Shown: positions 35,301 to 36,768 of the stretch, one piece after another
How the letters are laid out: each line of letters begins with the position of its first letter
How positions within the stretch are numbered: the first letter of the stretch is position 1
Assembly: GCF_054482525.1 (NCBI RefSeq)
Contig: NZ_CM137006.1
DNA: 64,000 bases
Reading direction: 5' to 3' (one strand)
Position numbers: made by a program

Positions 35301-36768
35301 TGATCATAAACGCCACGATCCTTGGCTCTCACAGATTTCGGGAGATGAAAGTTAGTTTACAGGCAGAAACCAGTCACAATATTGACATGAGAAAGATTTT
35401 CTGTTAAACAAAAAAATACATGAAATGATATAACATCACAAACTGGAGTTTTTATGGCAGAATCCGGGTTTATTTCTCTCGAATTATCCCGCTCACAGGC
35501 GCCTGTTACAATTAGCAAGACAGCTATACTCTTTGCAGAAGCAGACAATGATACCCCGGAGTCAACTCATCTACATTGCGTTGGTGGTATCACTCATACC
35601 GTAAATGGTGTTTTTAACGATATTGCAGAATTACTTCCGCGATTCATTAAGACGCACCGTCGGGATAATGGTCAACCCGCAGTGGCTATCCATGACTGGA
35701 ATGTTTCATACATTGAAAAAGGCAACGATGCTTCTGCTATTGTTTACTTCACAGAATCAGGCTCAAGTATAACCGTCCGTGAATCTTACGAAGACATAAT
35801 AGCAAAGTTTCACGCTCTTTAGTCAACACCTGTGCTGAGAATTAAAGCAGGGGCAGGATACAATTATCCTGCCCCTGCCGTTAAAGATTATACAATGAGT
35901 ATTACTTTTTAATATTTCGGTGGTGGGTTATAAAGATGTGGTCTCCTCAGAGGATCGTTTATGGCAGATAGTGCAGATATTGCTTATGAAAATGAACAAT
36001 TCAGCATGAGCATCAGACTAAAAAATCGTATCCGGAATAGACTCCCTGAAACGGGATTCTGCTATAACTGCGGAGAACCTGTTAAGACAGGATTGTTTTG
36101 TGATGGTGACTGTCGGGAAGATTATGAGAAACGTGAACGATTTGGAAAAATAAATACTGACAATGTTTAAAAGCAATACAATTACTGATATCTCTTTCAG
36201 ACTTCAGAATTAAAGAAAACTGCCCGAATGTTATCCGGAAAGCAGCTGTAATACCTCATTAACTGTTATCACAAATAAAACGCATACCTGTTCCATATGA
36301 AATTTGTCACGCCTGACTACATAACATTTATTATCCGGAGCACTGGGATGCCCGTGACACAGCATGCACAGAAATCCCCGTCGCAACAGCCTTTATCAGA
36401 AAACCATCTTTTTACCGGTCTATGGTGTTGCAGAGATATTTAATACTGACGCCGCGCATACCATTTTTCTCCATCGCATTGTAAAGATGCGCACATACCG
36501 TCTTCATGGTTATCCCCAGCCGGTCTGCCAGAAAGGTAAACCCGTAGTCATGGAAAACAACCCCGAAGACCACCACCATCTCTGTCCGGGTCAGTGGTCT
36601 TGCCGTATGTCCGAACAGCCACGCCCCACGGCGGATGGTTTGCCTGATATCTGTCAGGCATCTCACAGAGGAAACAGGAATGACAAGAAACCGACGCCCA
36701 CAGAACATAGAGTATGTAAGCCTTTCCAGATTACGGTCACAGAGAATCACATAACTGTCTTCGGGAAG

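Follow-up and report, generated by a model that had tools for sequence, protein, structure and literature searches.

What are the two small open reading frames (ORFs) that follow one another on the same strand at positions 35454–36170 of a 64,000-nucleotide stretch of contig NZ_CM137006.1 (NCBI RefSeq assembly GCF_054482525.1; the whole stretch is called the window below)? RefSeq labels both products 'hypothetical protein', and a preliminary description, made from the DNA alone, had taken them for an orphan pair, a 122-amino-acid protein of no recognisable family and a TraR/DksA-type zinc-finger protein, that could form a small regulatory module carried by a genomic island. Both ORFs are present, and their sequences identify them as danR and danI. 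These make up the DanRI regulatory pair, which has already been described in uropathogenic Escherichia coli (UPEC) and so is not new (Cerina et al., bioRxiv 10.1101/2025.06.10.658900, 10 June 2025; cited below as Cerina et al., 2025). The proposed regulatory module agrees with that preprint.

Because the pair was described in 2025, its novelty is low. The remaining interest lies in the possible TraR-like mechanism of DanI, which could involve either the RNA polymerase (RNAP) secondary channel or binding to DanR, and in DanR as an atypical LytTR protein. What our analysis adds to the preprint is that DanI is by its sequence a full-length, divergent TraR-superfamily protein that keeps the catalytic-site-directed DxxDxA tip, that DanR, a LytTR protein by its predicted fold, is atypical and acidic and cannot be taken for granted as a DNA binder, that the two families were partners in none of the loci sampled outside E. 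coli, and that both are recurrent neighbours of chaperone-usher fimbrial operons.

Identity with DanRI and published functions

The danR ORF (35454–35822, + strand, 122 amino acids) and the danI ORF (35961–36170, + strand, 69 amino acids) both start with ATG, both have an orthologue in strain UTI89, and both follow a well-spaced Shine-Dalgarno sequence that can be read directly from the DNA (GGAG at 35445–35448 and GAGGA at 35950–35954, respectively). By BLASTP, the window DanR is identical to UTI89 DanR (WP_000841005.1) at 121/122 residues, and the window DanI to UTI89 DanI (WP_001298030.1) at 68/69. DNA identity to the UTI89 papI-danR-danI segment is 96% across window positions 34715–36252, which extends about 80 bp beyond the danI stop codon, and the promoter regions of both genes are nearly identical in the window and in UTI89. 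The preprint assigns DanR to UTI89_RS23725 (122 amino acids) and DanI to UTI89_RS27595 (69 amino acids), names them 'defense against neutrophil regulator / inhibitor', and reports a danR–danI spacer of 139 bp (Cerina et al., 2025); the spacer measures 138 bp in the window (35823–35960). The 1-kb danRI stretch was found in 395 of 5,426 complete E. coli genomes, nearly all of the copies being chromosomal and at least 95% identical. This prevalence of 7.3% agrees with the approximately 7% of E. coli genomes given in the preprint, which also reports danRI in approximately 29% of UPEC (Cerina et al., 2025).

The ratio of non-synonymous to synonymous substitution rates (dN/dS) against diverged homologues was 0.08–0.26 for danR and 0.12–0.17 for danI, in each case where dS was unsaturated. 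Synonymous divergence is saturated, and non-synonymous divergence moderate, in the Salmonella, Citrobacter, Yersinia and Actinobacillus homologues, and the danR value for the window–UTI89 pair (0.31) comes from too few substitutions to be informative. By these sequence comparisons, danR and danI are genuine protein-coding genes under purifying selection; conservation and dN/dS rule out chance ORFs.

Expression of the two ORFs, on which the preliminary description depended, has been documented for the UTI89 orthologues by RNA-seq and quantitative reverse-transcription PCR, and both genes are strongly induced by neutrophil extracellular traps (NETs) and by purified nucleosomes (Cerina et al., 2025). 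Each gene has a separate inducible promoter, with read-through transcripts in addition; the region upstream of danR drives NET-inducible reporter activity in UTI89, and no autoregulation was seen. In the same experiment NETs also provoked a zinc-starvation response. Deletion of danI left 409 genes differentially expressed, with lower expression of flagellar, S-fimbrial and catecholate-receptor genes and higher expression of acid, envelope and metabolic genes, and deletion of danR or of danRI gave essentially no differentially expressed genes. Overexpressed danR is a phenocopy of the danI deletion, and co-expression of danI abolishes the effect (Cerina et al., 2025). This strict epistasis argues that DanI acts through DanR and not as a free-standing global regulator. 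According to the preprint, danRI is relevant to urinary-tract infection in that it weakens the oxidative burst of neutrophils, reduces NET formation and supports bladder persistence: the danRI mutant evoked more neutrophil reactive oxygen species (ROS) and NETs and persisted less well in the mouse bladder (Cerina et al., 2025). A toxin–antitoxin reading of danRI was dismissed, as no mutant in the preprint had a growth defect. TraR is nowhere mentioned in the preprint, and our literature search found no second paper naming the danRI loci or protein accessions.

A model that unites these data with the results below is that danR and danI are each transcribed from their own promoter, both being induced by the nucleosomes of NETs. 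Unrestrained DanR shifts about 400 genes, flagellar and S-fimbrial genes going down and stress and metabolic genes up, and DanI, a member of a large phage-derived branch of the TraR superfamily, keeps DanR in check. The likeliest route would be that DanI blocks DanR, or initiation complexes that depend on DanR, by direct protein–protein contact, using its TraR-like helix and zinc-ribbon scaffold. We put the probability of the regulatory-pair explanation as a whole at about 0.8. The gene identity, folds and homologies that enter it are results of the present analysis; the antagonism, the induction and the in vivo phenotype are taken from the preprint.

Folds and families of DanR and DanI

In single-sequence scans no Pfam, NCBIfam or PADLOC family reached threshold with DanR, its PHROG matches were insignificant (E ≥ 0.08), and phmmer and hmmsearch runs over PDB sequences retrieved no LytTR structure with it. 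The statement in the preliminary description that this protein has no recognisable family nevertheless gives way at the level of predicted structure. An AlphaFold2 model built from 10 homologues (predicted local distance difference test score, pLDDT, 87.7; predicted template modelling score, pTM, 0.81) shows an all-beta domain with two short helices, and a Foldseek search of the PDB with it gives LytTR domains in all of the first 13 places, with probability 1.00 and template modelling (TM) scores of 0.59–0.78. The structures matched include Bacillus cereus 3D6W, AgrA (4G4K, 4XQN and 3BS1) and ComE (4CBV). Superposition on the LytTR domains of AgrA, ComE and 3D6W gives a root-mean-square deviation (rmsd) of about 3–4 Å over the whole protein at a sequence identity of 14–19%, and the fold covers essentially all 122 residues, leaving no receiver domain. 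An hhalign comparison with the AgrA LytTR domain was not significant, yet colinear, and it laid DanR F64-I-K-T-H-R-R over AgrA F-F-R-C-H-N-S; at the LytTR motif FxRxHrS, E. coli DanR reads F64-I-K-T-H68-R69-R70. UniRef names the E. coli protein 'HTH LytTR-type domain-containing protein', and the preprint calls it a LytTR protein (Cerina et al., 2025). We are confident in the predicted fold, from which DanR would be a receiver-less, very divergent LytTR-fold regulator, and we infer that it binds DNA.

For DanI, the preliminary description had read the cysteine motif CYNCGEP...CDGDC correctly; in full it is C34-Y-N-C37-G-E-P...F-C47-D-G-D-C51, that is, CxxC-x9-CxxxC. Its assignment to the TraR/DksA type stood in part. 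The spacing of the zinc finger, the point on which that description had staked the assignment, is not that of TraR: the canonical CxxC-x17-CxxC was confirmed in F TraR (sequence checked against PDB 5W1S/6N57) and in lambda Orf73 and P2 Orf82 (extracted from their genomes), three proteins with demonstrated RNAP binding and regulation of initiation (PMC9239242). Nor did any of the curated TraR/DksA models (PF01258, TIGR02419, PRK13715 and TIGR02420) reach threshold with DanI. Pfam zf-dskA_traR (PF01258) matched neither DanI nor any of 146 relatives, and the NCBIfam matches of DanI were weak, N-terminal and below threshold (dksA, 16.1 bits against a cut-off of 115.5; TraR, 12.8 against 108). A PADLOC scan gave no match for DanI, as for DanR. 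The profile search that the preliminary description had proposed was positive with PHROG 54, 'DksA-like zinc-finger protein', an uncurated model that matches residues 1–60 of DanI (E 2e-8) and 146/146 of its relatives; at E ≤ 0.01, NCBIfam TIGR02419 (TraR family) is matched by 48/146.

The relationship to TraR is carried by profile homology and by the N-terminal tip. Aligned by hhalign, the DanI family matches the combined F TraR, lambda Orf73 and P2 Orf82 sequences with a probability of 96.2% (E 2.7e-9, 62 columns) along the N-terminal helix, both zinc knuckles and the C-terminal helix, and the gap falls in the zinc loop. The DanI N-terminus, M-A-D3-S-A-D6-I-A8-Y, has its DxxDxA in register with TraR M-S-D-E-A-D-E-A-Y, and the aspartates of this motif are needed for the function of TraR and Orf73 (PMC9239242). 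Across a 146-sequence alignment of the family, conservation is 90% or more at D3, D6, G32, C34, C37 and D54 and complete at C47 and C51. The family is large: an exhaustive profile search (E ≤ 1e-3) returned at least 1,853 clusters at 50% identity, nearly all of 60–80 amino acids. Among the best 149 relatives, 129 have CxxC-x8-10-CxxxC and 116 have a DxxDxA inside their first 25 residues; not one has a CxxC second knuckle, so that the canonical TraR spacing is absent from all 149. When the family profile was compared with PDB sequences the top match was TraR, at a marginal E of 0.037. The AlphaFold2 model of DanI (pLDDT 86.6) places helices at residues 4–21 and 49–66 on either side of the zinc knuckles, the second of them (pLDDT about 91) following the second knuckle and being paired by hhalign with TraR's C-terminal helix. 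The protein is hydrophilic and has no hydrophobic segment. By its sequence, DanI belongs to the TraR superfamily as a divergent member with a short zinc loop, one that fails the canonical spacing and the curated models and passes on homology and tip motif. It may bind RNAP, and TraR ancestry together with the kept tip motif makes the secondary channel a serious candidate target.

Distribution of the two families and competing explanations

Relatives of DanR are few, being found in E. coli, Salmonella, Citrobacter, Yersinia entomophaga and Y. nurmii (where the protein is called 'Yen6') and Actinobacillus, and none was found in 50,697 phage records. Relatives of DanI occur in 28 phage records, with 37–48% identity in the records listed, which bears out the expectation that such proteins are found in phages. 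In two temperate phages, Erwinia phage phiEt88 (retrieved locus L020, 2995–3210) and Pseudomonas phage Persinger (L021, 3001–3213), the DanI-family gene is an early-region gene flanked by recombination genes of the exo/RecT type on one side and by xis/int on the other. Lambda has its orf73 ORF in the equivalent exo–xis interval, between ea22 and orf61 (L024).

Within E. coli, the order and spacing of danRI are kept in 363–365 genomes, beside both pap and sfa/foc operons. A papI-type gene is present in 1,333 E. coli genomes and the full papI-danR-danI block in only 365; about 970 genomes carry the papI-type gene and about 350 bp of downstream spacer without danRI. One such genome was inspected and has an IS3 element after the spacer (L025, 3001–3591), and it suggests that in such genomes the danRI segment was lost or replaced through insertion sequences (IS). 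Outside E. coli, where we sampled about 10 genomic contexts for co-occurrence, DanR relatives lie at Salmonella prophage edges, on an IncFII plasmid, in Y. entomophaga, Citrobacter werkmanii and Actinobacillus, and at a metagenomic type-1-like fimbrial locus. Co-occurrence, which the preliminary description had put forward as a check, thus holds for the pair in the E. coli genomes that keep it and breaks down in every other locus sampled. We conclude that danR and danI were brought together locally, in E. coli, that they move with the regulatory regions of pap and sfa/foc, and that they do not form an ancient two-gene module.

Several of the contexts outside E. coli are of interest in themselves. 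The Y. entomophaga homologue Yen6 (56% identity; L006/L007, 5001–5363) has no DanI beside it; it adjoins yen7, which encodes a RoeA-like PhoB-type regulator, and is itself immediately 5' of the genes for chitinase and the Yen-Tc insecticidal toxin. Searching the literature for 'Yen6' turned up nothing relevant, and the Y. entomophaga paper PMC10101115 covers Yen7/RoeA without Yen6. DanI homologues of 60–63% identity occur without DanR on plasmid-like contigs of Salmonella enterica and Citrobacter freundii (Rep3, ParDE; L010–L012, 5001–5204), where their neighbours are two FimB/FimE-like recombinases, an AraC regulator, a CaiF/GrlA-like gene and a chaperone-usher fimbrial operon. The DanR homologue of locus L015 comes after a FimH-type fimbrial operon. 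Both families, then, recur beside fimbrial operons of the chaperone-usher class.

A number of observations weigh against the regulatory-pair explanation and the place of DanR in it. The functional evidence comes from one non-peer-reviewed preprint that contains no DanR–DNA or DanI–DanR binding assay (Cerina et al., 2025). The Pfam LytTR model (PF04397) misses DanR and 14 relatives, 15 sequences in all, even at E ≤ 5. Across the same 15 sequences F64 alone of the FxRxHrS motif is near-invariant, H68 and R69 being variable, and the positions aligned to the DNA contacts of AgrA are not conserved. The family (window DanR and 14 homologues) is acidic, with isoelectric points of 4.7–7.0 and a net charge of -7 for the window protein, and such acidity is unusual for a stand-alone DNA-binding domain. 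Acidity, unconserved motif and contacts, and the Pfam miss together mean that DNA binding by DanR is not assured. The two families also live apart. Searches by tblastn and by sensitive hidden Markov models run on six-frame ORFs found no DanI-family ORF within 4–5 kb in seven distinct DanR contexts outside E. coli, and no DanR within 4–5 kb in two DanI contexts, from Salmonella and Citrobacter. As the families are separate in every such locus sampled, DanI is not the ancestral dedicated partner of DanR.

The closest competitor overlaps with the regulatory-pair explanation and differs from it solely in the target of DanI. DanI would be a TraR-type secondary-channel factor whose N-terminal helix enters the RNAP secondary channel and brings D3 and D6 close to the active site, and it would make DanR-dependent initiation complexes unproductive without binding DanR. 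We regard this as a real possibility, if a somewhat improbable one. It is favoured by the full-length profile homology to RNAP-binding F TraR, lambda Orf73 and P2 Orf82 (PMC9239242), by D3xxD6xA8 positions that are as in TraR, with D3 and D6 conserved in at least 90% of the family, by a predicted helix-knuckle-helix architecture like that of TraR, by the first place of TraR among PDB sequence matches of the family profile, by the position of phage relatives in exo–xis-like early regions, with lambda orf73 in the corresponding interval, and by the existence of more than 1,800 DanI-family clusters without DanR. The transcriptome of the danRI double mutant, however, equals that of the wild type (Cerina et al., 2025), so that DanI has no DanR-independent effect at basal expression. 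The zinc loop of DanI is also 8 residues shorter and its second knuckle is CxxxC; as the globular domain of TraR touches the beta' rim helices and Si3 (PMC9239242), the docking surface must be altered in DanI. A broader form of the same idea is that the whole family of more than 1,800 clusters (about 65 amino acids, mostly phage, CxxC-x8-10-CxxxC) would be a functional short-loop TraR branch acting in the RNAP secondary channel, the UPEC copy having been captured beside DanR, with antagonism exerted on RNAP and not by sequestration. We offer this as tentative and somewhat improbable.

Three further explanations are rated much lower than the DanRI and RNAP-channel readings. By analogy with the thiol switch of DksA, the preprint speculates that DanI is a redox- or zinc-sensing switch, neutrophil ROS oxidising the four cysteines and thereby freeing DanR. 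The four cysteines are invariant or near-invariant in the family, the C4 finger of DksA is reported to sense oxidants (cited in Cerina et al., 2025), and the zinc-starvation response to NETs came from the same experiment; but more than 1,800 mostly phage-borne clusters carry the same C4 motif without any link to neutrophils, for which reason the cysteines are most simply structural, and such a switch would seem improbable. We give still less credence to danR and danI being functionally unrelated neighbours, a relic phage TraR-like gene acting globally on RNAP next to an independent island regulator, a view of the zinc-finger gene that comes near to that of the preliminary description. Their separate promoters, the strong hairpin between them, the separation of the families in loci sampled outside E. 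coli and the presence in phages of DanI relatives and not of DanR relatives would all fit such a view. It has to contend, though, with a danI-deletion phenotype that requires danR, with the neutralisation of danR overexpression by co-expressed danI, and with an order and spacing kept in 363–365 E. coli genomes beside pap and sfa/foc. Least probable is that DanI acts on DNA topology, as a YacG-like DNA gyrase inhibitor or a generic zinc ribbon of the DUF2116 type. The second knuckle, FC-x3-C, is alike, DUF2116 scores 19.3 bits with DanI, below its cut-off of 26.8, and is matched at E ≤ 0.01 by 53/146 relatives, and the DanI model superposes on YacG (4TMA_K) with an rmsd of 1.9 Å over 37 columns. 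That Foldseek match is nonetheless insignificant (E 6.6), the Foldseek search of the DanI model being uninformative as a whole; YacG has no counterpart of the conserved N-terminal DxxDxA helix, and the full-length homology to TraR is far stronger.

Island setting and related regulatory systems

The preliminary description had placed the pair upstream of a papI-like gene, whereas it lies downstream (3') of one. This gene, sfaC (34666–34950, + strand), is an ORF annotated as sfaC in strain UPEC 26-1, provides the S/F1C fimbrial operon with its papI-like regulator, and forms the 5' end of a block of about 1.5 kb (papI-like gene, spacer, danR, danI) that is common to sfa/foc and pap islands. The core chromosome occupies the window from position 1 to about 14.8 kb (dsbD, groL, aspA, dcuA, yjeH) and gives way to the island at a tRNA-Phe gene (14889–14964). 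From about 14.84 kb to its end the window is 99.7–99.9% identical to an island of UPEC 26-1, where an integrase gene adjoins tRNA-Phe at the island edge. In UPEC 26-1 the near-identical island is at a different tRNA-Phe locus, beside yqgA and speC, so that the same island uses alternative tRNA-Phe sites. On the island there follow one another the S/F1C (sfa/foc) fimbrial operon (minus strand), sfaB, sfaC, danR and danI, then a truncated LuxR-type gene and an IS3 element, then another chaperone-usher operon, cnf1 and hlyCABD; papX is on the same island (L001, 1943–2494). The conserved danRI block has its 3' end at 36171–36252, similarity to UTI89 ending near 36252, beyond which the window and UTI89 islands split into different IS-associated DNA. 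By ORF calls and annotation, the truncated LuxR-family gene (36412–36780, - strand) abuts the IS3-family element (36777–37990, - strand; orfB 36777–37823, orfA 37643–37990).

The spacers around the two genes hold some further elements. Between sfaC and danR, cmscan detected an AS-pc02-like non-coding element (35101–35279, + strand; Rfam RF02876, an antisense RNA of the F-type plasmid pHK01) over the full model, at 63.2 bits (gathering score 40; E 2.8e-14). At the DNA level the stretch is about 69% similar to sequences on more than 3,300 plasmids, mostly conjugative (F-type), where they lie beside genes of 'ANR family' transcriptional regulators; an ANR-family protein under this plasmid-like spacer was sought and none is encoded in the window. 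Nearer to danR, a sigma-70-like candidate promoter, TTTACA-16-AATATT (35356–35383, + strand), is a match to consensus. A repeat search of 34950–36300 gave no convincing operator shared by the danR and danI promoters, only short repeats at chance level and a hairpin. The latter, seen by repeat search and RNA folding, is a perfect 14-bp inverted repeat with a 4-nt loop (35847–35878) that starts 24 nt past the danR stop codon and is identical in UTI89; the danR–danI intergenic RNA has a predicted folding energy of -45.7 kcal/mol (z = -3.8). Because no T-run adjoins it on the + strand, the hairpin is not a canonical terminator; it probably serves as a leaky terminator or to stabilise the 3' end. 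Such a hairpin fits the read-through transcripts and separate promoters of the preprint.

Set beside its UTI89 counterpart, the window pair has the same order, strand and spacer, lies directly 3' of a papI-type gene and belongs to a UPEC island with cnf1 and hly. The UTI89 pair, however, follows papI on the leuX island PAI II, whereas the window pair follows sfaC on a tRNA-Phe island. DanI shares with TraR, lambda Orf73 and P2 Orf82 a length of about 70 amino acids, the start M-x-D-x-x-D-x-A, a first knuckle CxxCGxP(I/V) and a C-terminal helix, and its predicted architecture follows that of TraR, a globular domain between an N-terminal and a C-terminal helix. It differs from them in having CxxC-x9-CxxxC in place of CxxC-x17-CxxC, with a loop 8 residues shorter, and from TraR in that its published phenotype is wholly DanR-dependent. 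As for DanR, its closest known counterparts are the LytTR DNA-binding domains of AgrA, ComE and VirR (PF04397), and its predicted fold superposes on those of AgrA, ComE and 3D6W, with a weak colinear sequence match to AgrA; unlike them, it is receiver-less, acidic and invisible to Pfam, and its taxa are Gram-negative.

Two other systems resemble DanRI in some respects. PapX, FocX and SfaX are regulators with a MarR-type fold, encoded at the 3' end of pap, foc and sfa operons, that repress motility. Like them, danRI is attached to chaperone-usher fimbrial operons, and unrestrained DanR likewise lowers fli genes, but the folds differ (MarR-type versus LytTR) and the genes sit at opposite operon ends. 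The streptococcal HdrRM and BrsRM systems are closer in logic, each joining a stand-alone LytTR regulator to a small adjacent inhibitor whose loss unleashes the regulon. Their inhibitors, however, are co-transcribed membrane proteins, and the systems autoregulate (Cerina et al., 2025), whereas DanI, of phage TraR ancestry, is a soluble zinc-ribbon protein whose gene has a promoter of its own and is separated from danR by a hairpin. The relation of DanRI to HdrRM and BrsRM is therefore one of resemblance in working logic, not of membership.

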